IMG/VR virus record: IMGVR_UViG_3300029915_000005 | Length of the DNA: 64,000 nucleotides | Strand: one strand, 5' to 3' | DNA from: a virus | Shown here: positions 14,444 to 54,054 of the stretch, piece after piece | Layout: every line of letters begins with the position of its first letter | Numbering within the stretch: the first letter of the stretch is position 1 | Made by a program: the position numbers and the translations under genes | Notes under the pieces: model-generated | Seen by the model: only the letters and a program-made list of their open reading frames with translations | The model's database searches: none | What the model was told of the DNA's origin: nothing

Positions 14444-14552
14444 AAAATTTCTTAATACGTTTTTCTATTTTATTTTTATTACAATAAGAAATGATTAATA
14501 TTGGAATTTTATTGGCTCTTTCTATGAAATATTCCGTTGTATAAATAAACAT
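14424..14552 (-). pseudogene. Internally deleted homing endonuclease remnant (42 aa)
   Basis: MFIYTTEYFIERANKI joined to IPILIISYCNKNKIEKRIKKFF, i.e. the N-terminal repeat start and C-terminus of the 8201-9349 family. Confidence 0.6.
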
Positions 14553-14620
14553 ATGCTGATGTTCTCCTATCGAACGTTAGAGTCAGTAGATGTTCTCGCA
14601 TCGTGGCTGGCATTATTTAT
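14541..14620 (-). ncRNA. Structured leader element, copy A
   Basis: ATAAATA-at-GCCAG-CCAC-GATG(cgagaa)CATC-TA-CTGAC-TCTAA-c-GTTC(gatagga)GAAC-a-TCAGC-at-ATG-tt-TATTTAT. Confidence 0.7.
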
Positions 14621-14672
14621 GCTTGACTTTGATAAGTTTCTTTGATAATATTAGATATAAGGAAAAATAATA

Positions 14673-15347
14673 ATGAGCGAAGGAAAAGCTGATCCATTGT
14701 TGGGAATGATTATTAAAAAAATTCTGCAAGAAAAAGGTGTGGAAACTCCTACGTCAGATTCTTCTATTTTTAATAGTGATTATCAAAAAATTGAATCAAT
14801 AGAAATAAATTTTCGTAATATAATGAAGATGTTGAACTTAGATTTATCTGATGATAGTTTGAAAGAAACTCCCAGAAGATTTGCTAAAATGTTAGTGTAT
14901 GAAACAATGTGGGGATTGGACTATAATAATTTTCCAAAATGTACAACTGTCGAAAATAGGATGCTATATGACGAAATGGTAACAGTAAAAGATATAACAG
15001 TTCATTCAGTTTGTGAACATCATTTCCAAAATTTTGATGGATATGCAACCATTGCTTATATACCACATAATAAGATTTTGGGATTGAGTAAATTTCCTAG
15101 AATTGTTGATTTCTTTTCTAGAAGACCACAAATTCAAGAGAGATTAACAGAACAAATATTTTATGCTCTTAACTACATTTTAGAAACAGACAATATTGCT
15201 GTAGCAATAAATGCAGAGCATTCATGTGTTCGCAATCGCGGTATTCGTGACCAAAATAGTAGTACCATTACTTCTAGACTGGGTGGAGTATTTAAAGAGA
15301 ACCCTAGCGCTAAAGCAGAATTTATGGCATTTTTTAATTCTAAATAA
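14673..15347 (+). CDS. folE: GTP cyclohydrolase I
   Basis: ETPRR, SVCEHH, GLSKFPRIV, RRPQIQERLT, HSCVRNRG. Confidence 0.95.
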   Translation: MSEGKADPLLGMIIKKILQEKGVETPTSDSSIFNSDYQKIESIEINFRNIMKMLNLDLSDDSLKETPRRFAKMLVYETMWGLDYNNFPKCTTVENRMLYDEMVTVKDITVHSVCEHHFQNFDGYATIAYIPHNKILGLSKFPRIVDFFSRRPQIQERLTEQIFYALNYILETDNIAVAINAEHSCVRNRGIRDQNSSTITSRLGGVFKENPSAKAEFMAFFNSK

Positions 15348-15411
15348 ATGCTTGACTGATAGCAAAGACTATCTGGTGGAGGCAATCACATTAAATCGTG
15401 ATGTCCTAAAT

Positions 15412-15440
15412 AAAAGGGAATGAGTAACACATTCCCTTTT
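15412..15440 (+). terminator. Intrinsic terminator
   Basis: AAAAGGGAATG-agtaaca-CATTCCCTTTT. Confidence 0.7.
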
Positions 15441-15459
15441 AATTGGAGAAAATATAGTT

Positions 15460-15624
15460 ATGTATCATACTTTGTATTATTTGTTTTCTAAACCAGCCAA
15501 AGGAGTAAGTTTATGGACTGCATTTTGGTGTCGTTTAAAAGGGCATTCGTGTGGAGTTATTTTGTTTACTAGCAATTTTGAACCAGATATGCGTTGTAAA
15601 AATTGCAATGATGATTTAGGATAA
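15460..15624 (+). CDS. Small Cys/His hypothetical protein (54 aa)
   Basis: GGAG RBS; WCRLKGH...RCKNC. Confidence 0.5.
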   Translation: MYHTLYYLFSKPAKGVSLWTAFWCRLKGHSCGVILFTSNFEPDMRCKNCNDDLG

Positions 15625-15627
15625 ATT

Positions 15628-15987
15628 ATGTTGAATGAAAAATTTAATCTAAAAAACGATCTGAAAAATAGTGCATATATAAAAGAGAAAATTAAAGATG
15701 ATAATTATGCTCAAAATTTATATGCTGCATTAATATGCAAATGGCAACCATTGGATATTGAGTCTATATTAGTTGGTGAATATTGGTCAACTTCATGGAG
15801 AGGTTCAGGATCAGTGGTTGCTGAATTGAGAGATTGCGGCGAAACTTATATAAATTATTATTGTTCTGGAATGGGTTCTGACGACATTATTAAATTACGA
15901 TATCCAAAGTTTGTTAATGAAGAAGTGGTTACTGATGAAATTAGAACTGATTTATTAAAGCTGGGATGGAAGCAACTAAAGGATTAA
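15628..15987 (+). CDS. Hypothetical phage protein
   Basis: YAQNLYAAL..WSTSWRGSG..YYCSG; operon spacing. Confidence 0.6.
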   Translation: MLNEKFNLKNDLKNSAYIKEKIKDDNYAQNLYAALICKWQPLDIESILVGEYWSTSWRGSGSVVAELRDCGETYINYYCSGMGSDDIIKLRYPKFVNEEVVTDEIRTDLLKLGWKQLKD

Positions 15988-15988
15988 T

Positions 15989-16387
15989 ATGACAAGTTGG
16001 CATTTTGGTGGTAATTGTTACTTTAAATATCGTTCAGGATCGATTTATTTAATTGATCGACCATGGTGGTTAGCATTGGTTGTATGGTTCAGTGATGAAA
16101 TTCTTGGAAGAATATGCGATTTATTGATGTGTATTCCTCTTCCCAAATATGGAAGAATAGTAGAGCAAGGCCAAGTTTTCACGATTAAAGAATATTATGG
16201 AACAGTTGGTGATTTATTCCATATTTATATTCATGATCCAGTATTTACTTGGTGTTGGACACATAAAAAGAAAAAAGAAATTATAGTTGACGTTGGATAT
16301 GATAAATTAAAAGAATTATTCAATGACTATGATGGCAAGTATTTTAAAGATATAGAAGATAGACATAAGGAATATGATGGCAATTAA
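15989..16387 (+). CDS. Hypothetical protein
   Basis: RBS and tight operon spacing. Confidence 0.55.
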   Translation: MTSWHFGGNCYFKYRSGSIYLIDRPWWLALVVWFSDEILGRICDLLMCIPLPKYGRIVEQGQVFTIKEYYGTVGDLFHIYIHDPVFTWCWTHKKKKEIIVDVGYDKLKELFNDYDGKYFKDIEDRHKEYDGN

Positions 16388-17243
16388 AATAGCAGAAATT
16401 TTTGGTGGTAATAAAAAAGGTGGAACAATTCAAGGCGAAGGATATAGTGGAACTCCTAGTGTATTCGTTCGTGTTTTTGGGTGCAACAAAACTTGTGCTG
16501 GATTTAATATGCCACTGGGAGAAAAAAGCACAGAAAGATTTCAAGTTGATCCAACCAAATATACTGATTTTAAGCAATTACCAATATTAAATTTTGGATG
16601 CGATTCTTACAGTTCTTGGGACCCTCGTTTTAAAGATTTAAGTCCAGAACAAACCATAGAACAAATAGTTGATAGAATTCAAAATTTGCTTAGAGATGGA
16701 AAATTCAATCAGGATTGCCATTTGATTTTAACTGGCGGAGAACCCTTACTTGGATGGCAAAAGCAGTATCCAGAGTTATTAAAAGAAATTTATAATAGAA
16801 ATATGAATCTCACTGATCTTACTTTTGAAACTAACGGAACAAAGAAAATTTCCAGTGAATTAAGAAGAGGATTATGTGATTGCTATAATTTTCATCATTT
16901 AAATACATTATTTTCAGTTAGTGCAAAATTGCCTTGTTCTGGAGAAACTTGGGAATCATCTATTTTACCAGAAGTAGTGATGGATTATACAACTATTCCA
17001 GGAAGTAAAGTTTATTTGAAATTTGTGGTTTCTAATGATGAAGATTTGAATGATGTAAAACAAGCAGAAAAAGAATATAGAGATGCTGGATTCAAAGGAT
17101 CTATATATTTGATGGCAGAAGGATCAAATAATGTAAATAATTCTCATAATGCTACAAAAGTAGCAGAAATGGCAATTGAAAATGGTTATAGATATTCACC
17201 AAGATTACAATGTTCTTTGTGGAATAACAAGTGGGGATTTTGA
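16374..17243 (+). CDS. queE: 7-carboxy-7-deazaguanine synthase (radical SAM)
   Basis: TIQGEG..G.PSVFVR.FGCNKTC...GCDS, LTGGEPL, FETNGT, YSPRLQ. Confidence 0.9.
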   Translation: MMAIKIAEIFGGNKKGGTIQGEGYSGTPSVFVRVFGCNKTCAGFNMPLGEKSTERFQVDPTKYTDFKQLPILNFGCDSYSSWDPRFKDLSPEQTIEQIVDRIQNLLRDGKFNQDCHLILTGGEPLLGWQKQYPELLKEIYNRNMNLTDLTFETNGTKKISSELRRGLCDCYNFHHLNTLFSVSAKLPCSGETWESSILPEVVMDYTTIPGSKVYLKFVVSNDEDLNDVKQAEKEYRDAGFKGSIYLMAEGSNNVNNSHNATKVAEMAIENGYRYSPRLQCSLWNNKWGF

Positions 17244-17320
17244 TTAATGCAAACATTGTAATGAGAACACAATAAAAGATGATGGATATAATTTAATAAC
17301 TAAGGGGAAATAATAGAAAT

Positions 17321-17527
17321 ATGGACGAAATTAAATTAGTGACTCTTGAAGAATGGAACAAGATGCCCCCAAAAACACAAGGCTATGTGTTTTATATGCA
17401 AGCTGAATGGCCAGAAAGTGAATTAAAATCAAAATCTAATCCATATGAGAAAAAATCAAAAGAATTTAATTTATTTGAAGAAGGCGAAGAAAGAGCTTAT
17501 ATTGATGTATTGGATATGGAGGAATAA
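17321..17527 (+). CDS. Hypothetical protein
   Basis: ORF with RBS. Confidence 0.5.
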   Translation: MDEIKLVTLEEWNKMPPKTQGYVFYMQAEWPESELKSKSNPYEKKSKEFNLFEEGEERAYIDVLDMEE

Positions 17528-17881
17528 ATGAATTTTATAAAGAAATTTTTTGAAAGAAGAAAATCTAGAAAAGAACAAAAATCAGCGAAAGAAACTGCGA
17601 CACTAAATCATGAGCCATGGGTTGATATAATTGGATTTAATATCGATCCTAATAATTTATCGGATGGCGCATTTGATTTAGATTGGAATGATGTATTTCT
17701 GGCCAAATTAGTAAAAGCTGGATATAGGGGAAGAAACGATCATGCAATAGTAGAACAATGGTTTAATGATATTTGTAGATCAGTTATTACTGAAGAATAT
17801 GAGCAAGAAACTGCTGACCCAGATAAAAGAAAAATTATCAAAAGAAAGCAATTAGAAGATGGCAGAACTGAACATTCATAA
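17528..17881 (+). CDS. Hypothetical phage protein
   Basis: EPWV..GAFDLDWND.F...L..AGY. Confidence 0.6.
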   Translation: MNFIKKFFERRKSRKEQKSAKETATLNHEPWVDIIGFNIDPNNLSDGAFDLDWNDVFLAKLVKAGYRGRNDHAIVEQWFNDICRSVITEEYEQETADPDKRKIIKRKQLEDGRTEHS

Positions 17882-17889
17882 AGGAAATA

Positions 17890-18339
17890 ATGAAAATAAT
17901 TATTATTGTTATGTCAATAATGTTATTCTTAGCATTGGGAATTTTCATACAATTTTATGTGGGAATTATTCCAAATAAAAAAACTGATTTATTGCCAGAT
18001 AATCCAACAATTGTAAGCATAAATGGAAAACAATGGTATATATGGAACGTAGATGATTTAGGTCAAGGATTTTTCGATCATCTAAAAGATAGAAAAGCAG
18101 TAGCAGCTACAGATTGTGAAAATTTTCAAATAATATATTCATATACTTTGGGTCATAGGGATTTGAGAAATACATTATGGCATGAAATTTTTCATGCTGG
18201 AGCTTGCCCGCATGATGCTTCTTATTGGAACAGCAAGAGTGATAAAGATGAAGAGCACGAAGGAATACAACATCTTGCAGATTTTATAGAAAATTTCACA
18301 AGAGCAAATCCAGAATTTACGAAATGGGAGATGCAATGA
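17890..18339 (+). CDS. Membrane-anchored HExxH metallopeptidase-like protein
   Basis: N-terminal TM helix; TLWHEIFHA...EE. Confidence 0.55.
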   Translation: MKIIIIVMSIMLFLALGIFIQFYVGIIPNKKTDLLPDNPTIVSINGKQWYIWNVDDLGQGFFDHLKDRKAVAATDCENFQIIYSYTLGHRDLRNTLWHEIFHAGACPHDASYWNSKSDKDEEHEGIQHLADFIENFTRANPEFTKWEMQ

Positions 18340-18508
18340 ATACATTAAGAAATATTATTCTTATATAAGATTTGGGTGCAAAGTGCATGAACATCATTTT
18401 ATTCATGCTGGTTCTAATACTTTCAGGTGTGATATTAAATGATGTATTGCTTTGTATTGTGAGCAAAATTGGACTTAATTTCTTGACAAGGATAAAGGAT
18501 CATAGTTT

Positions 18509-19495
18509 ATGAATAAATTTTTATTGATCGATAGTAATCATCTCTTGCATCGGGTAAAACATATGATTAAAGGTACGCCAGAAGAAATAGTTGGCATGTC
18601 TTTACATATGCTATTTGCGAGTATTGGTAAAATTTGGCGGGTTCGATCTGGTACACATTTAGTGTTCTCATTTGATGGCAACAGTTGGAGAAAAAGTGTA
18701 TATCCCCCATATAAAAGAAATAGAGCAGAAGCTAAAAAAAAATGTACTCCAAAAGAGCAAGAATTAGATCAATTGTTTTTTGATGCTTTTGATATTTTTC
18801 AGAAATTTATTACAGAAAAAACCAACTGCACAGTATTATATAATCCTATTTTGGAAACAGACGATAATTTTTCAGGTTTCATTCAGGCACACCCAAATGA
18901 CTATCATATTATTGTAAGCAGCGATAAAGATTTTGAACAATTGCTTGCACCCAATGTAATTATGTATAACGGAATTGCAGACCAAACAATAACAACTCAA
19001 GGAGTGTTTGATTATAAAGGAAATGTAGTTAAAGATAAAAAGACCAATCTTCCAAAAGTTCCCCCAGACCCAGAATGGTCAGTATTTGAGAAAGCAGTTC
19101 GTGGGTGTACTACTGATAACATATTCAGTAGTTTTCCAGGAATTCGAGAAAAAGGAAGCAAAACAAAAGTTGGTTTGCGAGAAGCATTTGAAGATAGATA
19201 TAAACAAGGATTTGCATGGTCCTCAATGATGATGACGAGATGGCTAGATCATAATGGAATTGAACACAAAGTTTTGGATGATTATAATAGGAATGTTGGA
19301 TTGGTTAATCTTACTATGCAACCAGATCATATTAAAGAATTAATATTTGAGACTATTGCTGATGCGTGCGTTCCAAAGAATCGTTCGAGTATTGGAATAT
19401 TTTTTCTAAAGTTTTGCGGAAAATACGAACTAACCAAAATTAGCGATCAAGCAAATTATTTTTCGCAATTATTGAGTGCTTCATATCCAGAATAA
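18509..19495 (+). CDS. rnh: RNase H / 5'-3' exonuclease (T4 rnh-like)
   Basis: LLIDSN, FDG.SWRK..YP.YK.NR, ETDD, SSDKDF.QL, DNI. Confidence 0.85.
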   Translation: MNKFLLIDSNHLLHRVKHMIKGTPEEIVGMSLHMLFASIGKIWRVRSGTHLVFSFDGNSWRKSVYPPYKRNRAEAKKKCTPKEQELDQLFFDAFDIFQKFITEKTNCTVLYNPILETDDNFSGFIQAHPNDYHIIVSSDKDFEQLLAPNVIMYNGIADQTITTQGVFDYKGNVVKDKKTNLPKVPPDPEWSVFEKAVRGCTTDNIFSSFPGIREKGSKTKVGLREAFEDRYKQGFAWSSMMMTRWLDHNGIEHKVLDDYNRNVGLVNLTMQPDHIKELIFETIADACVPKNRSSIGIFFLKFCGKYELTKISDQANYFSQLLSASYPE

Positions 19496-19499
19496 ATAA

Positions 19500-25363: not shown

Positions 25364-26740
25364 ATGGCAAACACATTAAACAAGAATCAATCTCCAGAAA
25401 AGCTTGGTCGTATTACTGATCAACCAATTCCGCATGAGTTGGCAGTTCGTGTTGCAGACAAGATCACGCAGGCTCGGGTAAGTATGTTGTTCAATCAGCA
25501 ATTTTTTGGAACAATCGCAATGCGCATGGAACTAATGCCTGCTGATAAATGGTTGCCAACCATGGCAGTTGACGGCAAGTATATGTATTATAATCATAAT
25601 TTTGTTGATGAATTGTTTCAAGACGAGCTGATTTTTGTGGTATCTCATGAAGTTCTTCATTTGGTTTATGACCATTTGGGAAGAAATGAGTTTCGTGACC
25701 GTCAGCTTTACAATATTGCTGCTGATTATGTCGTGAATGATGAATTGATCTTGGCTAAAGTTGGAAAATTTCCAACTCATAAAATCCAGAAAAAGGACTC
25801 TTATGGTTCGATGCGAACAGTCGAAGAGCCAATTGGTTTGCATGATGTAAAATATCGTGACTGGAACAGCGAGAAAGTCTATGACGATCTTTTGCAACAG
25901 CAGGAGAAAAATGGCTCTGGCAAGGGTAAAAATTCTGATGGTAGTGGAACTATGAATGGTCAGGGTTTAAGCGAATTGCTTGATAAGTTGCTGGATGAGC
26001 ATATTTCTCCTGGTGCTGGAAAAGATGGAGAACCGTCAAAGTCTGATGGAAAAGCGAGTGCAGATGGTCCTGCGACATTTGGAGATGAAGAACGCAAGCA
26101 ATTGAAAGCAGAGTTGACGGACCAGATTGTAAATTTGGCCAAGTCTTGTAATCCTGGAAATTTGCCGTCTGGTGTTCAAAGAATTATTGAACAAATGACA
26201 GCACCAAAGATGGATTGGAGAGCATTATTGCAGTCCAATCTCGATAGCATTCTTCCTATTGACTATAACTATATGAAAATTAGTAGAAAGAGTACTCATC
26301 TCAATGTAATTCTTCCTGGGATTGTCAATGATCAGTTGCTGAATATCGCAGTTGCAATTGATATGTCAGGAAGTATTGGAGAGAAAGAAGCTGCTGAATT
26401 TTTGAGTGAAATCAATGGAATTATGGGACAATACCAATCCTATGAAATTTTGGTTTTTTGTTTTGATACCAAGTGTTATAATCAACAGATATATTCTTCA
26501 GATAATGGAGAAAATATTAATACATATGTTCCAATGGGCGGCGGTGGAACTGATGGTTCCTGCATTTTTGAGTATTTGAAAAATGAAGGAATTGAGCCAA
26601 TGAAACTTGTGGTTTTCACTGATGGTTATGTTGGAAACTGGGGCGATGAATTCTATTGTCCGACAATTTGGTGCATCAAGGGAAGTAAAGAAGTTCCTCC
26701 ATTTGGACAGGTAGCTTATTTGGATGATCAAATGAACTAA
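25364..26740 (+). CDS. Metallopeptidase plus VWA domain protein (DUF2201-like), MoxR partner
   Basis: TMAVDG, HEVLH, NIAADYVVN; DMSGS, GGGGTD, FTDG; preceded by TTGACA-17-TAATAT. Confidence 0.9.
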   Translation: MANTLNKNQSPEKLGRITDQPIPHELAVRVADKITQARVSMLFNQQFFGTIAMRMELMPADKWLPTMAVDGKYMYYNHNFVDELFQDELIFVVSHEVLHLVYDHLGRNEFRDRQLYNIAADYVVNDELILAKVGKFPTHKIQKKDSYGSMRTVEEPIGLHDVKYRDWNSEKVYDDLLQQQEKNGSGKGKNSDGSGTMNGQGLSELLDKLLDEHISPGAGKDGEPSKSDGKASADGPATFGDEERKQLKAELTDQIVNLAKSCNPGNLPSGVQRIIEQMTAPKMDWRALLQSNLDSILPIDYNYMKISRKSTHLNVILPGIVNDQLLNIAVAIDMSGSIGEKEAAEFLSEINGIMGQYQSYEILVFCFDTKCYNQQIYSSDNGENINTYVPMGGGGTDGSCIFEYLKNEGIEPMKLVVFTDGYVGNWGDEFYCPTIWCIKGSKEVPPFGQVAYLDDQMN

Positions 26741-26758: not shown

Positions 26759-26803
26759 AGAAATAAAAAATCCACTCTAAATTAGAGTGGATTTTTTATT
26801 TCT
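26759..26803. terminator. Palindromic bidirectional terminator (22-bp arms)
   Basis: AGAAATAAAAAATCCACTCTAA-A-TTAGAGTGGATTTTTTATTTCT. Confidence 0.75.
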
Positions 26804-27105
26804 TGGTTGTGTAATAAGGCAGAAAACATTTTAGCTTTAATTTTTCCTTCAAACATTTTGGTAAGTAGATGATGGCAAATAAAATGTTCTTTGGCAGTAA
26901 GAAAAACTTGATTTTCTTTTATTTTGGGATGTACTAATCCGAAAGATTTTGGAATTATGTGATGAGACTCGATATAGCCAAGTGTGGATTTGACAATTTT
27001 TTTATTTGTTCCACGAAAAATTGCTTTAGAACAAATATTGATATAAATTTTAGTATATTTGTTAAATATAGCAATATTTTGAATTTGAGATATATAAATA
27101 GACAT
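26782..27105 (-). CDS. HNH endonuclease, probably C-terminally truncated
   Basis: ESHHIIPKS..NQVFLTAKEHFICHHLL; ends inside the terminator. Confidence 0.75.
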   Translation of the reverse strand: MSIYISQIQNIAIFNKYTKIYINICSKAIFRGTNKKIVKSTLGYIESHHIIPKSFGLVHPKIKENQVFLTAKEHFICHHLLTKMFEGKIKAKMFSALLHNQEIKNPL

Positions 27106-27171
27106 ATGCTGGTGTCCTATGAGACATTAGAATTGGTGGGTGATCTTAACACCGCGACCAATAATATTTAT
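27094..27171 (-). ncRNA. Structured leader element, copy B
   Basis: ATAAATA-tt-ATTGGT-CGC-GGTG(ttaagat)CACC-C-ACCAAT-TCTAA-TGTC(tcatag)GACA-CCAGC-at-ATG-tc-TATTTAT. Confidence 0.7.
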
Positions 27172-27254
27172 CTTGACAAAATATAATTTATGCTCTAATA
27201 TTAAAGATATACAAGTTTAGAAAAGATAAATAAACACAGGAGAAACAAAACAAT

Positions 27255-27863
27255 ATGAGCAATAATATTTGCAAGCACGTTGGATTACATAATGCCAAGA
27301 AAATTTTAATTTTATGGAATAAAGTTCCTGGAGAATCTCATATGGCATTGGTTCTATTCGCTGATAAGATTCCCGCAGCATATTCTGAATTGGTTCATAA
27401 AACATTGGTAAGTGAAGCTGGGCAAAAAGCAAAAAATTTCGCAGATGCATTGAATGAAGTAAAGTTGCCTGACGGAAGAAATTTACTTAATGCTTTGCAC
27501 ACTGAATCGCATATTAAAAAAGTTCAAACGAATCAGACATTTGTTACACCTGACTCAATTAACAAGATTAAGTTAAATGAACTCAATGATATGATGGATA
27601 AAATTGAAGAAGGCGGGGATGCTAAGAAAAAATTAGAAGATTTAGATTTATATAAAGGAATGAATAAAAGAAAACGACGAAATGGGCTGTCAACCACTCC
27701 CAGTGATTTAGATATTTCTGATAAAAAGATGGTGGTAGCCTTGCAAGAGCAAGTCAAGCAATTGACTGGTGCTGTAGAAGCATTACTTGTTGAAGTTAGA
27801 CAATTGAAAGGGGACAGATCAGAACCTGCTTCAGTTGCTCCCAAAACACGAAAAATAATTTAA
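27255..27863 (+). CDS. Hypothetical phage protein
   Basis: AGGAG RBS; KHVG.H..K. Confidence 0.65.
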   Translation: MSNNICKHVGLHNAKKILILWNKVPGESHMALVLFADKIPAAYSELVHKTLVSEAGQKAKNFADALNEVKLPDGRNLLNALHTESHIKKVQTNQTFVTPDSINKIKLNELNDMMDKIEEGGDAKKKLEDLDLYKGMNKRKRRNGLSTTPSDLDISDKKMVVALQEQVKQLTGAVEALLVEVRQLKGDRSEPASVAPKTRKII

Positions 27864-33937: not shown

Positions 33938-36900
33938 ATGGCCTGGAAAAAATATTTCAAAAAAGCAACGCCAAATCAAGATGGGGTTTTTAGTCCTCTT
34001 TCTCGACGCGGTGGCAGAAGCACTGGAGAAGACGCAGTTGGTGTAAATAGTTATCCAAATCTTATTCAAGAGTCATATCTTGGATGCCCAAATCGTATAG
34101 AAAGATATCAGAATTTTGAAAGTATGGATCAGGATTCAGAAGTGAACTCTGCCCTTGATATTTTAGCTGAATTTAGCACTCAAAGCAATGAGCAAGATAA
34201 TATGTGTTTTAACGTAAAATTTAAAGAACCTCCGACAGAAACTGAATCTAAAATTATCAAAAAGCAATTGCAGTCATGGTATTATTTGAATGAATTCAAT
34301 AAAAGAGCATTTAGATTGTTTAGAAATGTTATTAAATATGGTGACCAAATCTTCCTTCGTGACCCAGAAACATTTAAATTATTTTATGTAGAAATGGATA
34401 ATGTTATTAAAGTAATTGTAAATGAAAGCAAAGGTAAGAAGCCAGAACAATATATTATTCGTAATATGGCTCCAAATTTTGAAAATTTAACAGCAACACA
34501 AGTTACAGCAAATAATCTTTATAATGTTGTTCCCAGTGGGCCAGGATTTAATGCTGCTGGTTCTGGATATAATGCTCCCAATAGTCCTTACAGTTCTAGT
34601 AGTAGATTTACAAAAGGATTAAATGAACATGCTATTAATGCAGAACATATTCTTCATCTTTCATTGACTGAAGGACTTGATCCCAATTGGCCATTTGGTA
34701 ATAGTATTTTGGAGTTAATTTTTAAAGTTTATAAACAGAAGGAGTTACTGGAAGATAGTATTATCATTTATCGTGTTCAGAGAGCGCCAGAACGTAGAGT
34801 GTTCAAAATTGATGTTGGAGATATGCCTCAGCATTTGGCAATGGCATTCATTGAAAAAGTAAAAAATGAAATGCACCAACGTAGAATTCCAGGAAGATCA
34901 GATGGTGGAAATTTTCAAGATTCTACATATTTTAGTATGGCTCCAAATGCTGATTTTTTCTTTCCCATCACTTCCAGCGGTCGAGGATCTTCAGTTGAGC
35001 AATTGGCAGGTGGCTGCTTAAAAATGGATACTAAAGTTCCATTATTAGATGGTAGAACGCTTTCATTAATTGAATTAACTGAAGAATTCCAAGAAGGTAA
35101 AGAGAATTGGGTGTATAGTTGTAATCCAGAAACAGGAGAAGTAGTACCAGGAATTATTTCTTGGGCAGGAGTAACTCATGAGTCTGCCCAAGTAATGAAA
35201 ATAACTCTTGATAATGAGGAAGAAATTATTTGTACTCTTGATCATAAATTTCCCATCCTAGAAAAAGGATTCGTTGAAGCAAAAGATTTGAGTATTGGAG
35301 AAAGATTTATTCCTTTTAATATTCAAAATAGAGAAATATTAAAAACTAGAAAAAAACAATATACACAAGTATATCAAAATAATACTAAAAAATGGGAATT
35401 TGTTCATAGAATGATAGCTCATTGTTTAGCATTAGAAAATTTTGTTTTTGATGAGCAATATAAAAATAGTAAAAAAGATGTAATTCACCATAAAAATTTT
35501 AACAGATTTGATAATTCTCCTTCTAATTTGGTTAGAATGGCATTTAAAGATCATACTGATTTTCATTCTTATTATGGATTTAGTAAGGATAGTCAAGTTC
35601 TTGGTACTATTGCTGCAAAAGAAAAAATGGAATTTATTAAAATTAACTATCCAGAAAAATATAAAAAGTTAATGAAAGAAAAAGGAAAGCGTCATAAAGA
35701 ATTTTGGGCTTCTTTAAATATAGAAGAAAGGCAGCAATATATTGATATTAAAAAAATCGGATTGCAGAATTATTTTAAAAATTTAACAGATAAAGAAAGA
35801 AATATTCGTATTGAAGAAATGATGCCAACTATTAATAGTTTAATTAAAGCATCTAAAGATAAGTTAGAAAAAATGAATACAGATGAAGATTATTATAACT
35901 GGGTTTGCGAGCATCAGCAAAAAGGTTGGGATAAATTTAAGAAAACACCAGAAGCAAAAATTCGTGGAAAGAAAATTGGAAATGATAATCGTTTAAGATT
36001 TTCTCGCCCTGGTTATACAGAGAATGTTTTTAAAAACCAAAGAGTAAAAGTTGATAAACAAACATTGGATTATGTTCAAAGTTTGGTTTTACAAAAAAAT
36101 AAAATTAAAATAGTTGAAGCAATTAAATTATTTAATGACACAGATGAATATTTGAATTATTATTTAAATTTAAATAAAGAAACTTGCTGCGCAAATTGGA
36201 ATAATGATAGATTGACTGGAAGCCAATTAAGAAATGCATTGAAAATTCGTGGATATAAAAATTGGAAGCAATTCAGAGATGAAGTTAGATTATATAACCA
36301 TGCCATAGTATCAATTGAATATTTGTCTGAGCCAATACAAGTTGGAACTTTAACTATTGATAAAGATGAAAAATATCATAATTATCATACTTTTGCTTTG
36401 GCTAGTGGAATTTTTACAAAAAATTCTAATTTGAATGAAATTGATGATTTAAAATACTTTAATAATAAGATGATGCGTGGATTAAGAATTCCGAGTAGTT
36501 ATCTTCCAACTGGTCAAGATGATAGCCCTTCAACAATAAATGATGGAAGAGTTGGCACAGCATTAATTCAAGAATACAGATTTAATCAATATTGTGAAAG
36601 ACTCCAAAAATTGGTTTGTGATCCTTTAGATTTGGAATTTAAAGCATATTTAAAATGGAGCGGAATTAATATTGATTCAAGTATGTTTCAATTGACTTTT
36701 AATCCACCACAAAATTTTGCTCACTATAGACAAGCAGAATTAGATAGTTCTAAAATTAGCACATTTACTCAATTAGAAGGATATCAATATTTTAGTAAGA
36801 GATTTTTGATGGAACGATATCTTGGTATGACTTCTGAAGAAATCAATGAAAATCAAAAATTATGGAGAGAAGAAAATGTATCTCCTGATCAAATTGAATC

Positions 36901-37099
36901 AGAGCCTTCTGACTTGAGAAATCTTGGTATAACTGCTGGTGGTATTGATTCAGACTTACAAAACTTTGGTGGTGAAGAAGGTATGGGAGAAGAAATGCCA
37001 GAAGGCGGAGAAGAAGCTGCTCCTGGGGAAGGCACACCAGAAGGAGCTAATACTCCAGTTGCTGCTCAAGGCCCTGCACCAACTAGCTCAGGCGCTTAA
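33938..37099 (+). CDS. gp20: Portal protein gp20 containing an intein
   Basis: MDQDSEVNSALDI, LLEDSIIIYRVQRAPERRVFKIDVG, DDLKYF..L.IPSSYL. Confidence 0.95.
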   Translation: MAWKKYFKKATPNQDGVFSPLSRRGGRSTGEDAVGVNSYPNLIQESYLGCPNRIERYQNFESMDQDSEVNSALDILAEFSTQSNEQDNMCFNVKFKEPPTETESKIIKKQLQSWYYLNEFNKRAFRLFRNVIKYGDQIFLRDPETFKLFYVEMDNVIKVIVNESKGKKPEQYIIRNMAPNFENLTATQVTANNLYNVVPSGPGFNAAGSGYNAPNSPYSSSSRFTKGLNEHAINAEHILHLSLTEGLDPNWPFGNSILELIFKVYKQKELLEDSIIIYRVQRAPERRVFKIDVGDMPQHLAMAFIEKVKNEMHQRRIPGRSDGGNFQDSTYFSMAPNADFFFPITSSGRGSSVEQLAGGCLKMDTKVPLLDGRTLSLIELTEEFQEGKENWVYSCNPETGEVVPGIISWAGVTHESAQVMKITLDNEEEIICTLDHKFPILEKGFVEAKDLSIGERFIPFNIQNREILKTRKKQYTQVYQNNTKKWEFVHRMIAHCLALENFVFDEQYKNSKKDVIHHKNFNRFDNSPSNLVRMAFKDHTDFHSYYGFSKDSQVLGTIAAKEKMEFIKINYPEKYKKLMKEKGKRHKEFWASLNIEERQQYIDIKKIGLQNYFKNLTDKERNIRIEEMMPTINSLIKASKDKLEKMNTDEDYYNWVCEHQQKGWDKFKKTPEAKIRGKKIGNDNRLRFSRPGYTENVFKNQRVKVDKQTLDYVQSLVLQKNKIKIVEAIKLFNDTDEYLNYYLNLNKETCCANWNNDRLTGSQLRNALKIRGYKNWKQFRDEVRLYNHAIVSIEYLSEPIQVGTLTIDKDEKYHNYHTFALASGIFTKNSNLNEIDDLKYFNNKMMRGLRIPSSYLPTGQDDSPSTINDGRVGTALIQEYRFNQYCERLQKLVCDPLDLEFKAYLKWSGINIDSSMFQLTFNPPQNFAHYRQAELDSSKISTFTQLEGYQYFSKRFLMERYLGMTSEEINENQKLWREENVSPDQIESEPSDLRNLGITAGGIDSDLQNFGGEEGMGEEMPEGGEEAAPGEGTPEGANTPVAAQGPAPTSSGA
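35015..36424 (+). mobile_element. Intein (470 aa) with HNH endonuclease
   Basis: GG|CLKMDTKV, block B CTLDHKF, VHRMIA..IHHKNFNRFDNSPSNL, HTFALASGIFTKN|S. Confidence 0.9.
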
Positions 37100-48024: not shown

Positions 48025-48032
48025 CTTAGTAT

Positions 48033-48067: not shown

Positions 48068-48231
48068 GTAACTGGCGCACTATCCAATTTATAATGTAAC
48101 AGTGTTTTAGATAGAATTATTTACTTTACAACCAAAAATTATATAAATTGATAAATACTAATGACTAATAAATATTAGTTTTATGAAGTAAGTAATCTTC
48201 GTAGGGAGTAGAACTCCAAAGAGGTAATATA

Positions 48232-49116
48232 ATGGGTCGCCCGTTAAAAAGACAAAAATATTTTGATCACGTTGATGCAAATAAAACCAATGTAGTTCAT
48301 CAAATTCAATCAACAACTTGGGGACCAGCAGATTCATCTGCGCTTCCTGGTTATTTAACAAAGCAAAATAGCACAAATAGATTCCGTGCTCATACAGTCA
48401 ATGGAAATAGTTTAACCACTCTTTCTAATGGGACACCCACTTCTGCTGGTTATTCAGCAGTTAAAGTTTTTCCAGTTGGGTCAGATCCTGTTGTTTATGC
48501 AAATGCTACTGCAAAGTTAAAAATTATTAATGCTACAGTGGTAAATGGTGGAAATAATTATCATGCTAATGATGTTCTAAGTGTTTCTGGTGGAACATTT
48601 GGTAATTCAGCAACAATAACAGTCAATTCAGTGTTTGGTAATAGTGCTGTAAATGCAATCACTCTAAATGCTGTGGCAAATCAAGGATATTCTGCTTTGC
48701 CAGCAAATATTGCTGGAGTTGCAACTGTTGATACAACCAATGCAAATGGAATTGGAGCAATATTCAGCGTTAATTTTGGTCTTGAAAGCGTGAATGTTGT
48801 TTCTGGTGGAAACAATTATTCCAGCGCAACTCTAGTATTTCCAGGATCCCAAACAGCCCCAACAGTTACTTCATTTGTTGTTGCTGGATCACTTGTTAAC
48901 AACGTAGCTGTGAATACACCTGGAGTTATCAATGTTAACCCAACTGTTACTGTTGAAGGAACATCAGGAACAACTGAATATGTTAAACAGATTCAATCTG
49001 AACACCAAGTTCTTACGTTCGGAGGAAATGTATATAATTGGTTGCCAAAAGGAGTAACTCCTCCTGCTGATTATGCAAATCTTAACATTAAATTGGCTTA
49101 CTTAGACACTTTGTAA
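48232..49116 (+). CDS. Putative virion structural protein
   Basis: MGRPLK start, beta-rich V..GG.NY repeats, late promoter. Confidence 0.6.
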   Translation: MGRPLKRQKYFDHVDANKTNVVHQIQSTTWGPADSSALPGYLTKQNSTNRFRAHTVNGNSLTTLSNGTPTSAGYSAVKVFPVGSDPVVYANATAKLKIINATVVNGGNNYHANDVLSVSGGTFGNSATITVNSVFGNSAVNAITLNAVANQGYSALPANIAGVATVDTTNANGIGAIFSVNFGLESVNVVSGGNNYSSATLVFPGSQTAPTVTSFVVAGSLVNNVAVNTPGVINVNPTVTVEGTSGTTEYVKQIQSEHQVLTFGGNVYNWLPKGVTPPADYANLNIKLAYLDTL

Positions 49117-49130
49117 ATAATTGTGATAAT

Positions 49131-49165
49131 TTTATAGGCATGAATAAATTATTCATGCCTATAAA
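49131..49165. terminator. Palindromic terminator
   Basis: TTTATAGGCATGAATAA-A-TTATTCATGCCTATAAA. Confidence 0.7.
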
Positions 49166-49201
49166 TTTGTTTTTATATAAATAACATTAGAGGGTATAAT
49201 A

Positions 49202-49573
49202 ATGTCAGACTCTAATGTTACGGTAACCACATCTGCAACACTATCAGAAACAACTTCAACAGCAAATATAGCTGAAACAGATGATAATGGCGTTGAAGTT
49301 TATAATCCATCTATAAACAATTGGGATAAAAGATTCTGGCGTTCAGTAGTTTCAGTCCCAAATGGCACTGGAAGCACTTCAAAAGTAGCTACATTATCTA
49401 TAGTATGGATAACATTAGGGATTTTGATTTATCTTATTGCAATAACTCATGGTATACCAGATCATATAATGCTATTGAGTTATTTTAGTAGTTTGCTTAT
49501 CTGTGTAATTTATAGCCCAGCAAAAATTATTGAATTATTACAACTACGATTTGGTAATGGAAGTAAAAAATAA
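49202..49573 (+). CDS. Two-TM membrane protein (holin-like candidate)
   Basis: Two hydrophobic helices, basic C-terminus, late promoter. Confidence 0.45.
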   Translation: MSDSNVTVTTSATLSETTSTANIAETDDNGVEVYNPSINNWDKRFWRSVVSVPNGTGSTSKVATLSIVWITLGILIYLIAITHGIPDHIMLLSYFSSLLICVIYSPAKIIELLQLRFGNGSKK

Positions 49574-49993
49574 TTATTTGGAAAATAAGCTTTCAGCTAA
49601 TTGAATTTTTTCTTTGATGGTAGCAATTGATAACGAATTAAAAAGTCCAGGATGCAAAGGTTTCGGGAATTTTTCTAATGCAGTCCAACAATAACCATCA
49701 TGCTCACTATTTAAAGTAGGAATAAATTCCCTTTCAATAATAAAAATGAATGAATGATATCTAAATTCTTCATCAAAACTAGTAAATGTTTCTAGAGGAA
49801 TATATTTTTCTATTTCTGGAATACTTCCCAATTCTTCAAGCAATTCTCGATTTAATCCAACAATAGTATTTTCATCTAGATTTAATTTTCCACCAGGCAA
49901 CCCCCAAGTCCCTCTTGTTTTCGTATTATTGCGAAGAAGGAATAAAAATCGTTTTGTTGATTTTGAATAGAAGAGTGCTCCAGCAGCAATCAT
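49574..49993 (-). CDS. NUDIX hydrolase
   Basis: WGLPGGK..E....GLNRELLEELG; LNSEHDGYCW; PLHPG. Confidence 0.9.
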   Translation of the reverse strand: MIAAGALFYSKSTKRFLFLLRNNTKTRGTWGLPGGKLNLDENTIVGLNRELLEELGSIPEIEKYIPLETFTSFDEEFRYHSFIFIIEREFIPTLNSEHDGYCWTALEKFPKPLHPGLFNSLSIATIKEKIQLAESLFSK

Positions 49994-51336
49994 TAGATTA
50001 TTAATCTCCAGTTTTCAGCAGTATAGGGACCGTTCCATCCATTCACCCATGCATTTCCATTCCATTGAATTTGAGAACTGGTATTATTGTCGTATACAAA
50101 CTGAATATTTCCAATATTGTTATTGGCAGAAAAGGTAGTGATCCATGAATTTCCATTATAACTTATAATATCATTGACTTTTGCAGATGCGTTACTATTT
50201 ACAGTATTATATGGCCAATTTGTCCCAATATCACTAGTTAGTAAATAACTTTGGCCAATGTTAGCATTGGGCAATCCAATATTTGGTGCTTCACTTTCAG
50301 GATTTATAATTGCAGTAATTGCTGGCAAAGTGTTTATTGGCAAAGTTGCTATATTGGCGTTGAAAAGAACAATTGTAGAATCAGAAGGATTAACAGTTAT
50401 GGTTCCAATAATTTCATTTGTGTCTCCAGCATAAGTTAACCCAATTTCTGATACCCCTTGTCTAATATTTCCATAAACTCCAAGAATTCCATTCCAATCC
50501 AACGGCTGTCCGTAGACTCCAGCCACATTGGATGAATTGACTCCTTGATTAAGAATTCTTATTTGATTATTATTTACAAACAGTCCATAATTATTGTATG
50601 TTACTACTTGTCTAGTTCCATATACAATATCATTAATTCCTGCCAATTCGCCAATATTGGAAATAACTTTGAATATAACTCCCATTTTACTAACATGAGC
50701 AGGGAGAGTTAACCAAATAGGAGATTCAAATTGTAACGTACTTATATCATAAGAAGTGTCATTTCCTTGACCAACTGGAATAGTTCTATTTGACCAAGTG
50801 GTATCGTTTAATTCCAAATAACTTAAACTTTCCCAATCTTCATAATTGTCAGTTTTTTGAATTTCTATTGATGGGTTAAATAATGGCAATATTTGTTCTA
50901 AAATTTGTAATTTTTGTTGTGTATTGCTAGTAACAATGTCGAGACGCACTTCTAATTTATATGGAACAGGCATGAATTTTTTAACTGTGTAAGCATTTCC
51001 TTGAGCAGGAAGATAAGTTCCGCAAGCAGGAGAAAATACTCTAGTTCTCACTGTAGATGAATCTACATATGTTGGGGTTTGAGTTCTTGGTCTGTCAAAT
51101 TTTAGATTATTAATGTATATGGAAATCATCGGGATACTAGGTAAAATATTCTCGCTGTTTAATCTTTGAATTGTCGCTGCTTGTATAGAGCCATCTCCCC
51201 ATATAACAGGAACAGATGAATATAATTGATTTCCAGATGCATCCAATCCATATTGCACTTGGAATTCGCTGAATACTCGCATAATCTGCAAAATCCATTT
51301 TCTTATTTGGGCTGAATATTGAAAAGTTTGTGCCAT
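49993..51336 (-). CDS. gp15: Tail terminator / sheath stabiliser gp15 with C-terminal extension
   Basis: YSAQIRK, VPVIWGD, PVPYKL, QKLQILEQILPLFNPS. Confidence 0.85.
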   Translation of the reverse strand: MAQTFQYSAQIRKWILQIMRVFSEFQVQYGLDASGNQLYSSVPVIWGDGSIQAATIQRLNSENILPSIPMISIYINNLKFDRPRTQTPTYVDSSTVRTRVFSPACGTYLPAQGNAYTVKKFMPVPYKLEVRLDIVTSNTQQKLQILEQILPLFNPSIEIQKTDNYEDWESLSYLELNDTTWSNRTIPVGQGNDTSYDISTLQFESPIWLTLPAHVSKMGVIFKVISNIGELAGINDIVYGTRQVVTYNNYGLFVNNNQIRILNQGVNSSNVAGVYGQPLDWNGILGVYGNIRQGVSEIGLTYAGDTNEIIGTITVNPSDSTIVLFNANIATLPINTLPAITAIINPESEAPNIGLPNANIGQSYLLTSDIGTNWPYNTVNSNASAKVNDIISYNGNSWITTFSANNNIGNIQFVYDNNTSSQIQWNGNAWVNGWNGPYTAENWRLII

Positions 51337-51348
51337 TATTCCTCAAAT

Positions 51349-52821
51349 TTATATAGATATATCATTTGTCATGGTAGTTGAAGCTAAAAATTGATTAAGT
51401 ATTGGTTGATAAACAAAAGATTGGCTGCTAAATGTATTGGGATTTGCGGTAGCTGCATTGGAAGAAATTTCCCCTGCTCCAATAAAATTTGTCGGCCAAT
51501 TAAATGAATGTTGACCTATACTATCTTGAATAATTATAAATGTAAATTCTCTTGGGCATGGATTAATGATTATTGCGTTTGCATCTCCAGTTAGTGTTAT
51601 GACTTGTATCGATCCAAGAGTTAAGTCAAAAATTGGATTGGGATAGTAGGGTACAATATTTTCCATTGAAATGTCTCCGTCTTCTGGATAATTTTTCCCA
51701 ATATTGAAAAGACTGTCCAAAGATTGTAAGATTGGTTCTGATATATTAGAGTTATTAACAAAAGTATTTGAATTATTTATAAATGTATCTTTTTGAGTTT
51801 TTCCTTTTCCTGGAGTTAATTGAGTCCTAACATCTTTATTTACAAATTGCCACATACTTCCATTCCATCTAAATAGTCTCGCTGGAAAATAATCTTGGCG
51901 AAGAATATATTGTCCAACAGTTGGCGACGGAGGAAATTCAGTAGCTGGGTAAACTGAATAACCATCAATTGCTTCTCCATTTCCCACCAAATAACCAGTA
52001 AATTTTTGTTCAGGACTTGACCCTAATGGCGCTGGACCATTTTTGGGATTTCCGCCAATATATAATGGTGCCCATAATGGATTGGTATCATAACCTGACT
52101 CAGGAACTTCGTGCTCTGCTTGTTTTATAATGGCAACATCCATAGTTTCATATGTATTTATTGAACTACTAATATTACCATAAGTAGTAGTATTTCCATT
52201 TATTAACACTGGACTTCCATTCACTCCAATAACTGTTTGGTTTAAAATATCTGCATATTCTTGAGAATCTACCATTGGAATACATTTAACTCTCCAAAGA
52301 TGAGGCCACCAATCCCAGCCGTACCCCAATGCACTTTTGGTAGCATCTTGAATTACATAATATCTTTTTAATGCTACTGGTACAGTTTCGTCGAGGCTAT
52401 AAAATTCTTTAAGATTGGGAAGTTCCAAAACATCCCCAGACATTAACTTTCTTCCAATAGTATTAACCATTTCATTGAGATGAAAAGTAATAAATAATGT
52501 TCCAGAAGAAATCATCAATCCCCATTGGCTCAAATCTAAATCCAATTCAGAGATAGAATAATGGCATCTCAAACGAAATATATCTTGTCTATATTTTCTA
52601 TCTCTATTTTCAAGAAACAGCACATCTTGAATATTCTGAGCACTCAAATTTGGATAGTTAGGTTGAGTTGCATCGTTTGTAACATTGGGATTTTCTGCAC
52701 CAAGGTATAAATGAATATAAGAATCCACTCCACCAACAGTGAATTGTTCATTAATTTGTCTATCTAGCCACTTTGAATCAGTGCCATATTTTTCATTTTT
52801 CCAACCACTGATTCTTGACAT
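51349..52821 (-). CDS. gp14: Neck protein gp14 with C-terminal extension
   Basis: IQDVLFLENRDRKY, DLSQWGL, GDVLELP, WWPHLWRVK. Confidence 0.8.
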   Translation of the reverse strand: MSRISGWKNEKYGTDSKWLDRQINEQFTVGGVDSYIHLYLGAENPNVTNDATQPNYPNLSAQNIQDVLFLENRDRKYRQDIFRLRCHYSISELDLDLSQWGLMISSGTLFITFHLNEMVNTIGRKLMSGDVLELPNLKEFYSLDETVPVALKRYYVIQDATKSALGYGWDWWPHLWRVKCIPMVDSQEYADILNQTVIGVNGSPVLINGNTTTYGNISSSINTYETMDVAIIKQAEHEVPESGYDTNPLWAPLYIGGNPKNGPAPLGSSPEQKFTGYLVGNGEAIDGYSVYPATEFPPSPTVGQYILRQDYFPARLFRWNGSMWQFVNKDVRTQLTPGKGKTQKDTFINNSNTFVNNSNISEPILQSLDSLFNIGKNYPEDGDISMENIVPYYPNPIFDLTLGSIQVITLTGDANAIIINPCPREFTFIIIQDSIGQHSFNWPTNFIGAGEISSNAATANPNTFSSQSFVYQPILNQFLASTTMTNDISI

Positions 52822-52822
52822 A

Positions 52823-53980
52823 TTATATTACCTCTATCGTATTTATGGATTTATTTGAAATATATTGTAGTATATCATTTTTGATTTCTTCTTTTTTAGA
52901 ATTCCAGTCCAATTCCCATATGATCATTAAATCAATTTCTTTTTCTTTGCACAATTTTGATTTTCGCGCATCTCTTTCCCATATTTTTTGAGCACTTCCC
53001 TTGCATTTATTAATATCGTGTTCATTATATTTTCTAGGGTCCATGTGCCAATAAGTTCCTTGAAATTCAATAGCGAAATTTATATTGGGACAGTAAAAAT
53101 CAAGTTCAAATTTTTTTAAGGGTTTCCAAGTATTTGATACAAATTGTATATTATTTTCATTTAAAAAATTGGAAAGCTCAAGCTCATAACTTGAAGTCCC
53201 AGTATCTGTTATAATATTTAAATTATATCGTTTATGATAATTGTAAATAGTTACTGGAGTACATCCTAATATTTTTGATAATTTAATAACTCCATATTTT
53301 ATTAGCATTTTAGTAAAAACATCTTTATTTTCAAGTATTTTAATAGTTTCTTGAGAGAAATGTTTTTGAGCATAAAAAGAAACTCCATTATTTTCTATAC
53401 AAGTATCAATTTTTTGTTGTTTAACTTTTGGATTTTTAGATGGATTATCATAACCAGAATTTTTCATACAGGTATTTTTGATAATTTTTTGAACTTTTTC
53501 TTCTCTCATGGGATGGCCACTAACATAGTTTTTTATAAATGTTTCTTTTATTCGAGTTTTGATAATAGAAGATTTTGATGGATTATTGACTCCCCAATTT
53601 TTAATAAACTTTTGTTTATTTTCTTCTTTAATTTTTTCTGATTTTCCAGGATTATCTGTTCCATATTTTTCTAAACAGGTTTCTTTAGTTCTATATTGAA
53701 TACATTTACAGCCACGTTTACAGCTAAATTTATGTGTCGATGGCCTGTATTTTTGTTTATTTCCATATGAACAAATTAATTCAAAATTAGGATTTAAAAT
53801 TAAAAAAATTTTTGATCCCAAAGAATCATTAAAATTAGAATATAAATTATTAATTTCGTCATTTATCCATTTTAATAAATCTTTATGATCATTGTTTCTA
53901 ATTAAATTAATAAAATATGGAGATTCCTTTTTTAATTTTAAAATTTCTCCAACAGCATTTTCACGAGTATAAATATTCAT
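52823..53980 (-). CDS. Putative homing endonuclease (repeat plus ELDFY..EFQG family)
   Basis: Start MNIYTRE after GGAG; TCLEKYGTDNP repeats; SSYELE..ELDFY..AIEFQGTYWH. Confidence 0.8.
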   Translation of the reverse strand: MNIYTRENAVGEILKLKKESPYFINLIRNNDHKDLLKWINDEINNLYSNFNDSLGSKIFLILNPNFELICSYGNKQKYRPSTHKFSCKRGCKCIQYRTKETCLEKYGTDNPGKSEKIKEENKQKFIKNWGVNNPSKSSIIKTRIKETFIKNYVSGHPMREEKVQKIIKNTCMKNSGYDNPSKNPKVKQQKIDTCIENNGVSFYAQKHFSQETIKILENKDVFTKMLIKYGVIKLSKILGCTPVTIYNYHKRYNLNIITDTGTSSYELELSNFLNENNIQFVSNTWKPLKKFELDFYCPNINFAIEFQGTYWHMDPRKYNEHDINKCKGSAQKIWERDARKSKLCKEKEIDLMIIWELDWNSKKEEIKNDILQYISNKSINTIEVI

Positions 53981-54054
53981 AAGCTGATACTTCTCCATAC
54001 ACAGTATTAGAGTAGTCGAGGACCCCTATTCCTGTGGTCTGCATTAGTATTTAT
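53969..54054 (-). ncRNA. Structured leader element, copy C
   Basis: ATAAATA-ctaat-GCAG-ACCAC-AGGA(atagggg)TCCT-CGA-CTAC-TCTAA-TACT(gtgtatggaga)AGTA-TCAGC-tt-ATG-aa-TATTTAT. Confidence 0.7.

Follow-up and report, generated by a model that had tools for sequence, protein, structure and literature searches.

Three copies of one cassette at the head of open reading frames

We analyzed a stretch of 64,000 nucleotides from IMG/VR virus record IMGVR_UViG_3300029915_000005, called the window below. It derives from a T4-related jumbo myovirus of 32% GC that encodes a T4-type portal and a family-B polymerase, and its tail sheath is ∼40% identical to the sheaths of PA5oct and Atu_ph07. The subject of this work is a cassette of ∼85 to 95 bp that lies on the minus strand at 14541-14620, 27094-27171, and 53969-54054 (copies 1 to 3), each time at the start of an open reading frame (ORF) and with a divergent gene next on the plus strand. 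This cassette accompanies homing endonucleases as they insert, and we propose that its opposite strand would yield a structured antisense RNA.

On the ORF strand, each copy consists of an ATAAATA box resembling a late promoter (the sense box), an outer stem, CRC, an inner stem, TCTAA, a second hairpin with the Shine-Dalgarno (SD) sequence GGAG or AGGA, YCAGC, 2 nt, and ATG. The conserved block continues past the start codon into the ORF as ATG nnT ATT TAT, aligned as ATG nn TATTTAT(A). The pattern TCTAA N12-26 CAGCWTATG has three matches in the window versus 0.03 expected, and a covariance model built from relatives of the window copies (R1) finds exactly three copies, at 46.0 to 56.1 bits (Table 1), the next-best score being 10.3 bits. 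These results bear out a preliminary description of the window, which had placed three minus-strand copies at the same positions and had listed the elements in the same order.

The preliminary description had also named all three downstream genes as nucleases. This label holds for ORF3, a full-length homing endonuclease, and for ORF2 once it is recognized as the N-terminal third of a phrog_655 homing endonuclease; the label is thus only partly right, as ORF1 matches no family. Copy 1 is effectively a solo cassette. The cassettes on the two decayed ORFs (copies 1 and 2) score no lower than intact copy 3, as expected if the cassette has some use besides the nuclease or if the decay is recent. 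A paralogue of the ORF3 family (phrog_3339/DUF7487) at 56933-58210 on the plus strand has no cassette; thus, the module is separable from the protein family. The region upstream of this paralogue has TAAATA, followed by a simple hairpin, AAAGCTT...AAGCTTTT, and a T run.

Table 1. Coordinates and strands of cassette features
Feature	Position	Strand	Remarks
Copy 1, sense late-promoter-like box	14614..14620	-	ATAAATA; from sequence
Copy 1, two-hairpin core	14555..14613	fold on +	antisense to ORF1; R1 51.5 bits
Copy 1, embedded antisense late box	14541..14547	+	ATAAATA; equals codons 2-4 of minus-strand ORF1
Copy 1, ORF1	14424..14552	-	42 aa, no family; overlaps 3' end of + gene 12923-14443
Sigma70-like promoter abutting copy 1	14623..14651	+	TTGACT-17-TAATAT; precedes GTP cyclohydrolase I gene 14673-15347
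Copy 2, sense late box	27165..27171	-	ATAAATA; from sequence
Copy 2, two-hairpin core	27108..27164	fold on +	R1 56.1 bits
Copy 2, embedded antisense late box	27094..27100	+	ATAAATA; from sequence
Copy 2, ORF2	26782..27105	-	107 aa, truncated homing endonuclease; aligns to 22-93 of 343-position phrog_655 profile
Sigma70-like promoter abutting copy 2	27173..27201	+	TTGACA-17-TAATAT; precedes gene 27255-27863
Copy 3, sense late box	54048..54054	-	ATAAATA; from sequence
Copy 3, two-hairpin core	53983..54044	fold on +	R1 46.0 bits
Copy 3, embedded antisense late box	53969..53975	+	ATAAATA; from sequence
Copy 3, ORF3	52823..53980	-	385 aa, full-length phrog_3339/DUF7487 homing endonuclease; begins MNIY
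Divergent neighbour of copy 3	54076..54570	+	start codon 22 nt beyond cassette
Copy in Pseudoalteromonas phage vB_Psh_XG4 (L150)	PP712099.1:56142-56205	minus	record unannotated, flagged UNVERIFIED_ORG

The cassette heads unrelated homing endonucleases in uncultured phages

A scan of IMG/VR with a 19-base pattern returned at least 114 loci; among the matches listed there were 84 distinct sequences, 74 of which passed a crude stem check, and 3 of these 74 were chance matches by eye. R1 gave 113 matches over 100 sources, 106 of them distinct. The cassette is thus present in more than 100 IMG/VR phage contigs with up to 13 copies per genome, as whole-record R1 searches of five phage contigs of 134 to 361 kb found 13, 8, 8, 1, and 0 copies. 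In 596 Gb of prokaryote genomes, there were 60 pattern matches, of which the covariance model accepted only those on three contigs of metagenome-assembled genomes (L272, L281, and L283) and rejected the rest as chance. Among 14 cultured phage genomes searched with the model, the sole copy is in Pseudoalteromonas phage vB_Psh_XG4. Whole-genome model searches found no copy in PA5oct, Phosso, Atu_ph07, Vibrio 2.275.O, or GAP32, nor in the Synechococcus phages S-SRM01, S-N03, ACG-2014f, and B23. With no copy in these four T4-like cyanophage genomes, we dropped the idea that the cassette is a cyanophage feature.

Neither a megablast search with the region nor a blastn search with a 100-nt cassette sequence matched any of 50,697 phage records. 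Rfam offers no counterpart: Rfam 15 has no match at the gathering score in the whole window, and at E≤5 copy 2 yields only a 14-bit chance match to ES036, outside the core. No description was found in the literature searched for an endonuclease-associated RNA motif. We conclude that the cassette is widespread in uncultured T4-related phages and undescribed in the literature searched.

The ORFs after the cassette encode homing endonucleases of many unrelated families, all beginning M-x-I-Y: several HNH types, classic and YVYAYLR-type GIY-YIG enzymes, and NUMOD-type, zinc-finger, and DUF7487 proteins. The view that one conserved, covarying module is common to unrelated selfish nucleases therefore stands. 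In some GIY-YIG genes, the I-Y of the cassette doubles as the GIY motif (MIIYRITN...); other genes have a true GIY as well, after the first I-Y (MSIYSIYKATN...). The conserved block in codons 2 to 4 may have arisen from the GIY codons (GGn ATT TAT) of such a gene and then spread to other nuclease families.

One 134-kb phage record (G003) departs from the common sequence, with CTAG instead of CTAA in 5 of its 8 copies (L121, L124, L130, L133, and L139). The variant reads TCTAG in four copies and ACTAG in L133, and it turns a near-constant G.U pair of the fold described below, at the foot of hairpin A, into G-C. We regard this as a genome-specific variant of an otherwise "invariant" motif, through within-genome homogenization or coevolution with a factor.

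The conserved fold lies on the strand opposite the nuclease

Among 72 relatives read in the sense of the ORF, all 10 pairs of hairpin 1 have double changes, in agreement with the covariation noted earlier from the three window copies. Hairpin 2 behaves differently on the two strands. Read in the sense direction, its base has a constant A.C, with a further A.C in 30 of the 72 relatives and C.A in 22; on the opposite strand, the same positions read as G.U, as A-U or G.U, and as U-A, U.G, or C-G, the last series with counts of 23, 22, and 20 at one pair. Such series are classic for RNA helices.

On the opposite strand, the cassette folds into two hairpins, A and B, which are separated by a single A and have the conserved nucleotides clustered at their junction. 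In this structure, 98.8% of 1,339 alignment cells are paired and 15 of 19 pairs have double changes; the covariation score was reached by none of 500 shuffles, and slid controls were 32 to 46% paired. The CRC, TCTAA, and CAGC segments had been taken for unpaired spacers, a view that the opposite strand overturns. There, TCTAA and CAGC pair with each other via C-G, U-A, and G.U, and the R of CRC pairs with Y across an internal loop (G-C in 33 copies, A-U in 22, G.U in 16, unpaired in none), leaving one R-Y pair between two bulged G residues in hairpin B. The earlier opinion that the module exceeds simple SD occlusion is supported, and the module does have conserved nucleotides outside the stems.

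Over the 106 distinct copies, the ratio of G.U to A.C on the opposite strand is 228:6, and G.U is seen with U on either arm. The mean minimum free energy (MFE) is -19.4 kcal/mol for the antisense strand versus -13.9 kcal/mol for the sense strand, and the antisense fold is the better one in 105 of 106 copies. For copies 1 to 3, the z-scores are -3.3, -2.2, and -0.8 on the plus strand versus -0.5, -1.7, and -0.8 on the minus strand; the core of copy 1, for example, has an MFE of -21.9 on the plus strand versus -11.4 on the minus strand. A strand-specific mutational bias of such size is implausible as the cause of the G.U asymmetry, and we take the asymmetry as a sign of selection for folding of the strand that is plus in the window.

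This evidence bears directly on the structured sense leader of the preliminary description, in which the nuclease mRNA would occlude its own SD and bind a protein or ligand. The SD does lie in or beside the second sense hairpin, hairpin 1 pairs almost fully on both strands, the predicted sense late start falls at or 1 to 4 nt inside the outer stem, and SD-sequestering hairpins are used by T-even endonucleases (PMC2988022). However, a sense leader has to accommodate the A.C and C.A oppositions at the base of hairpin 2, the near absence of sense G.U, and a fold that is the weaker one in nearly every copy; moreover, the late box is upstream of both hairpins, so that late transcripts would not be freed from the SD hairpin. 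We therefore consider this explanation improbable and favor a fold on the opposite strand.

Other features of the hairpins were inspected by eye. A candidate loop-loop pairing between the two hairpins was not consistent across copies and was rejected. Hairpin B loops are sometimes exact reverse complements between copies (TTGGCG and CGCCAA; e.g., L015 and L061), as though the loop had been turned around in place between the inverted arms. No terminator was called at hairpin B in any of the three window copies; a U-rich UAUUUA lies 2 to 5 nt beyond its interrupted stem, and weak termination may occur.

Two late-promoter-like boxes face each other

Codons 2 to 4 of the nuclease ORFs (nnT ATT TAT) are the complement of ATAAATA on the opposite strand. 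Since the seed pattern required TATTTAT, we examined this embedded box in the 33 model hits that depart from it; the bias in this sample, if any, is against a perfect box. All 33 have T as the last base of codon 2, across eight different codons (background, 33%); at codon 3, 28 of 30 Ile residues are encoded by ATT (background, 39%); and 31 of 33 hits have TAT as codon 4 (Tyr background, 63%). Thus, nucleotides rather than amino acids are conserved here.

The boxes of the cassettes read [A/C]TAAATA. In T4, the late promoter consists of a TATA box of 8 bp at position -10; no -35 element or other sequence is needed, and the cassette box can be compared to this TATAAATA-like box, which lies about one helical turn ahead of the start (PMC2988020). 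The embedded box is 5 to 7 nt from the start of the fold in 101 of 105 copies, a spacing that predicts an RNA start 0 to 2 nt before hairpin A and fits a T4-type box at -10. On the other side, the sense box ends 2 to 5 nt ahead of hairpin 1 in 90 of 102 copies. TAAATA is also found 10 to 40 nt upstream of many structural genes of the window (those for the sheath, the portal neighborhood, and virion proteins), making a T4-type late promoter plausible for this phage. We predict that the cassette contains two facing late promoters, whose transcripts would overlap at the mRNA 5' end, SD, and AUG.

Two hairpins one A apart, directly after a promoter-like box and with conserved nucleotides at the junction and in bulges, resemble the put RNA of phage HK022, in which a pair of hairpins separated by a single base closely follows a promoter. 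By this analogy, the RNA would modify the polymerase or bind a protein, and late transcription from the embedded box would become resistant to termination. There is no Rfam match; such a function would also leave the exclusive link to endonucleases unexplained, and co-oriented copies (see below) have no downstream target for read-through. We hold it to be a very slim chance.

Cassette and ORF are inserted together, in either orientation

Filled and empty alleles could be compared at two loci. At the first (L161), a reverse-oriented insert of 712 bp, made up of a 209-aa endonuclease gene and its cassette, replaces the 22-nt spacer, with its SD, that in L162 and L163 separates the baseplate hub gene from the gene upstream; the flanks are 99.6% identical. 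At the second (L300), a co-oriented insert of 571 bp with a 162-aa HNH gene (phrog_99) and its cassette separates the stop codon of an ATPase-like gene from the ATG of the SbcC-like gene that follows; in L303, these two genes adjoin (TAGTATG). The flanks are 95 to 97% identical, and the sense box begins 4 nt past the upstream stop. Both loci display the presence or absence in an intergenic spacer that is typical of free-standing homing endonucleases, and the two comparisons show that cassette and ORF are inserted as one unit, whichever way they point. The mobility signal raised in the preliminary description survives in this limited sense, that the cassette is part of what is inserted.

In other contigs, a reverse-oriented cassette lies ∼117 nt ahead of the start of the ATPase-like gene that precedes the L300 insert (L342-L344:1328-1384); it and the L300 cassette are two independent insertions beside one gene. 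A search for an empty site of window copy 2 via gene 25364-26740 found only relatives of ∼40% identity with another gene order, and between diverged filled alleles the insert is not clearly more conserved than its flanks.

The position of the cassette at the very edge of the insert could also be read as a DNA-level signal, imperfect hairpins that one strand forms while single-stranded in replication or recombination and that a nuclease or recombinase recognizes in the manner of integron attC sites or IS200/IS605 ends. DNA hairpins tolerate G.T, the extrahelical G residues are on one strand only, and some hairpin B loops are, by eye, mutually reverse-complementary. Yet no recombinase gene accompanies the cassette, homing endonucleases move by double-strand-break repair and do not need end structures, and the promoter boxes at both feet of the fold would be left unexplained. 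On this balance, we think a DNA signal very unlikely.

Neighboring genes and the outward box

Of 95 copies classified by the orientation of their upstream gene, 57 have a divergent and 38 a co-oriented one (an earlier count gave 58 and 40). In 27 divergent copies, the neighbor starts no more than 36 nt past the fold with only an SD between; such close neighbors encode the tail tube (twice), the baseplate hub, a DNA end protector, a clamp loader, and a nuclease, and for the tail tube, baseplate hub, and DNA end protector the gene start is no more than 25 nt beyond the cassette, again with only an SD between. About 20 of the 106 copies, including window copies 1 and 2, are abutted by a sigma70-like promoter of the form TTGAC...TATAAT.

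These arrangements invite the explanation that the cassette is only an outward late promoter with a stabilizing 5' leader for the displaced neighbor and does not regulate the nuclease. The predominance of divergent copies, the late structural genes among the 27 closest neighbors, the loss of spacer and SD of the baseplate hub gene at L161, and the divergent genes at all three window copies agree with it, and promoters of neighboring genes are known to be embedded in T4 segG, segA, segE, mobB, and mobC (PMC2988022). The co-oriented copies are its main difficulty: there, the upstream gene ends a few nucleotides before the cassette and leaves no gene to serve, and the same box and the same asymmetry are still seen (G.U:A.C of 74:4, versus 125:2 in divergent copies). 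In addition, the window neighbors at 14673 and 27255 have their own sigma70-like promoters. The asymmetry in copies without a neighbor to serve argues that the fold matters for the endonuclease itself and that the folded strand is transcribed from within the cassette, by an internal antisense promoter. A role confined to the neighbor is accordingly the less expected outcome, and we rate it as unlikely.

A proposed model for cis-antisense control of homing endonucleases

In T4-related phages, this portable cassette makes up the 5' border of inserted free-standing homing endonucleases, and its nuclease strand supplies a late-promoter box, the SD, the start codon, and the first three codons. The embedded box faces back, and an RNA begun there would carry the two-hairpin fold at its very 5' end. 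Such an RNA would be fully complementary to the leader, SD, and AUG of the nuclease mRNA, with half of the anti-SD exposed in the loop of hairpin A, and could restrain translation and mRNA stability in cis, as RNA-OUT of IS10 is said to act on transposase. Where the neighbor is divergent, the same transcript would provide a promoter and a stable 5' leader for that gene and lower the cost of insertion. Our results show the module and its covariation, which strand folds, that the embedded box is conserved in its nucleotides, and that the cassette belongs to the inserted unit; we infer the firing of either box, the existence of the antisense RNA, and the repression. That an antisense RNA covers the ribosome site of the nuclease and also leads late transcripts into divergent neighbors, including those of all window copies, has in our estimate a probability of about 0.5.

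Several observations weigh against this model. The antisense RNA is predicted from sequence, and no cultured phage with transcriptome data was found to carry the cassette among the 14 cultured genomes searched. TATAAATA is not enriched in the window overall, with 14 occurrences versus 12.3 expected. The bases after the sense and antisense boxes agree, G with G, in 31 of 39 cases, a weak signal confounded by relatedness. Both boxes are of the late type; hence, the antisense RNA offers no obvious temporal switch. Without a canonical intrinsic terminator after hairpin B, the RNA may be long and not a discrete small RNA. Finally, the junction (GCUG, UUAGAGU, and the bulged G) is not needed for simple antisense pairing, which suggests a binding partner.

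Such a partner belongs to a bolder form of the cis-antisense model, to which we give less than even odds: a new family of structured cis-antisense RNAs, two-hairpin "dumbbells" with a conserved junction made from a first-codon promoter, may serve as a universal, portable governor of the homing endonucleases of T4-related phages and be recognized by a dedicated factor of phage or host. If this bolder form is true, unrelated selfish nucleases would share one throttle, and the same bidirectional late-promoter unit would repair the transcriptional damage of the insertion. Among the selfish elements of large phages, homing endonucleases are the main ones, and one portable cassette common to many nuclease families would be a general answer to how they remain harmless and spare the operons they enter. 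The cassette would also add to Rfam a well-supported phage RNA family that is missing there, and it gives annotators a marker for endonuclease starts that accounts for the M-x-I-Y beginnings across families.

Other features of the window

A perfect 20-bp palindrome with flanking A and T runs at 26760-26802, between gene 25364-26740 and the 3' end of ORF2, looks like a bidirectional terminator. The GTP cyclohydrolase I gene downstream of copy 1 adjoins a 506-aa ORF without a Pfam or PHROG family (together 12923-15347, plus strand), and the two might be parts of a pathway for DNA modification with 7-deazaguanines. The gene for the T4-type portal (Portal_T4, 33938-37099, plus strand, 1,053 aa) has an intein-splicing match and an HNH endonuclease domain at about residues 462 to 569; the portal protein probably holds an intein with a homing endonuclease inside.

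Comparison with known systems

Among the T-even endonuclease genes, I-TevI, I-TevII, I-TevIII, segB, and Aeh1 mobE are controlled by late promoters and ribosome-binding-site hairpins, the late start being inside the SD-sequestering hairpin so that late transcripts can be translated (PMC2988022). In the cassette, by contrast, the box is upstream of both hairpins (hairpin 1 comes 2 to 5 nt after it, and the SD hairpin is more than 40 nt away), and the sense SD hairpin is weak, with 4 or 5 Watson-Crick pairs above 1 to 3 A.C mismatches in place of a stable stem; the selected fold is on the other strand.

Promoters of neighboring genes lie within T4 seg and mob coding regions, segG for instance containing those of gene 32, and antisense transcripts can arise when endonucleases invade (PMC2988022). 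As in these genes, a promoter within the endonuclease ORF would serve a host gene and favor retention of the element. The seg and mob promoters are co-oriented, locus specific, and unstructured, whereas the box of the cassette is in codons 2 to 4 and points out of the ORF, against its direction; a conserved fold comes after this box, and it is portable from one nuclease family to another.

In the passage of PMC10690425 that cites Millard et al. 2010, an antisense RNA, CfrI, is placed opposite the homing endonuclease F-CphI in cyanophage S-PM2. On that account, CfrI resembles the proposed RNA in overlapping a free-standing homing endonuclease gene of a T4-like phage. It differs in its setting, as the four T4-like cyanophage genomes searched, S-PM2 not among them, have no cassette.

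Arbiol et al. in 2010 reportedly described the PeSLs, promoter-stem-loop cassettes of T4-type phages, and these are likewise repeated, mobile promoter-plus-stem-loop regulatory modules in T4-type genomes. PeSLs differ in having early promoters and only one stem-loop and in lying beside diverse small ORFs, with no tie to endonuclease starts or to an antisense fold.

A close parallel is IS10/Tn10, in which transposase is reportedly under antisense control by RNA-OUT and RNA-IN, as Simons and Kleckner are said to have found in 1983. The cassette differs from IS10 in its two hairpins with a conserved junction, its T4-type late boxes, and its association with many unrelated nuclease families, and its antisense RNA is predicted from sequence. 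The pairing, the double changes, and the G.U asymmetry described above are those of a stable structured antisense RNA of the RNA-OUT type. In IS10, a promoter in the first codons of the element's gene faces that gene, a stable stem-loop antisense RNA covers the mRNA 5' end, SD, and AUG, and the outward promoter can drive adjacent genes too; the cassette is predicted to share these features.

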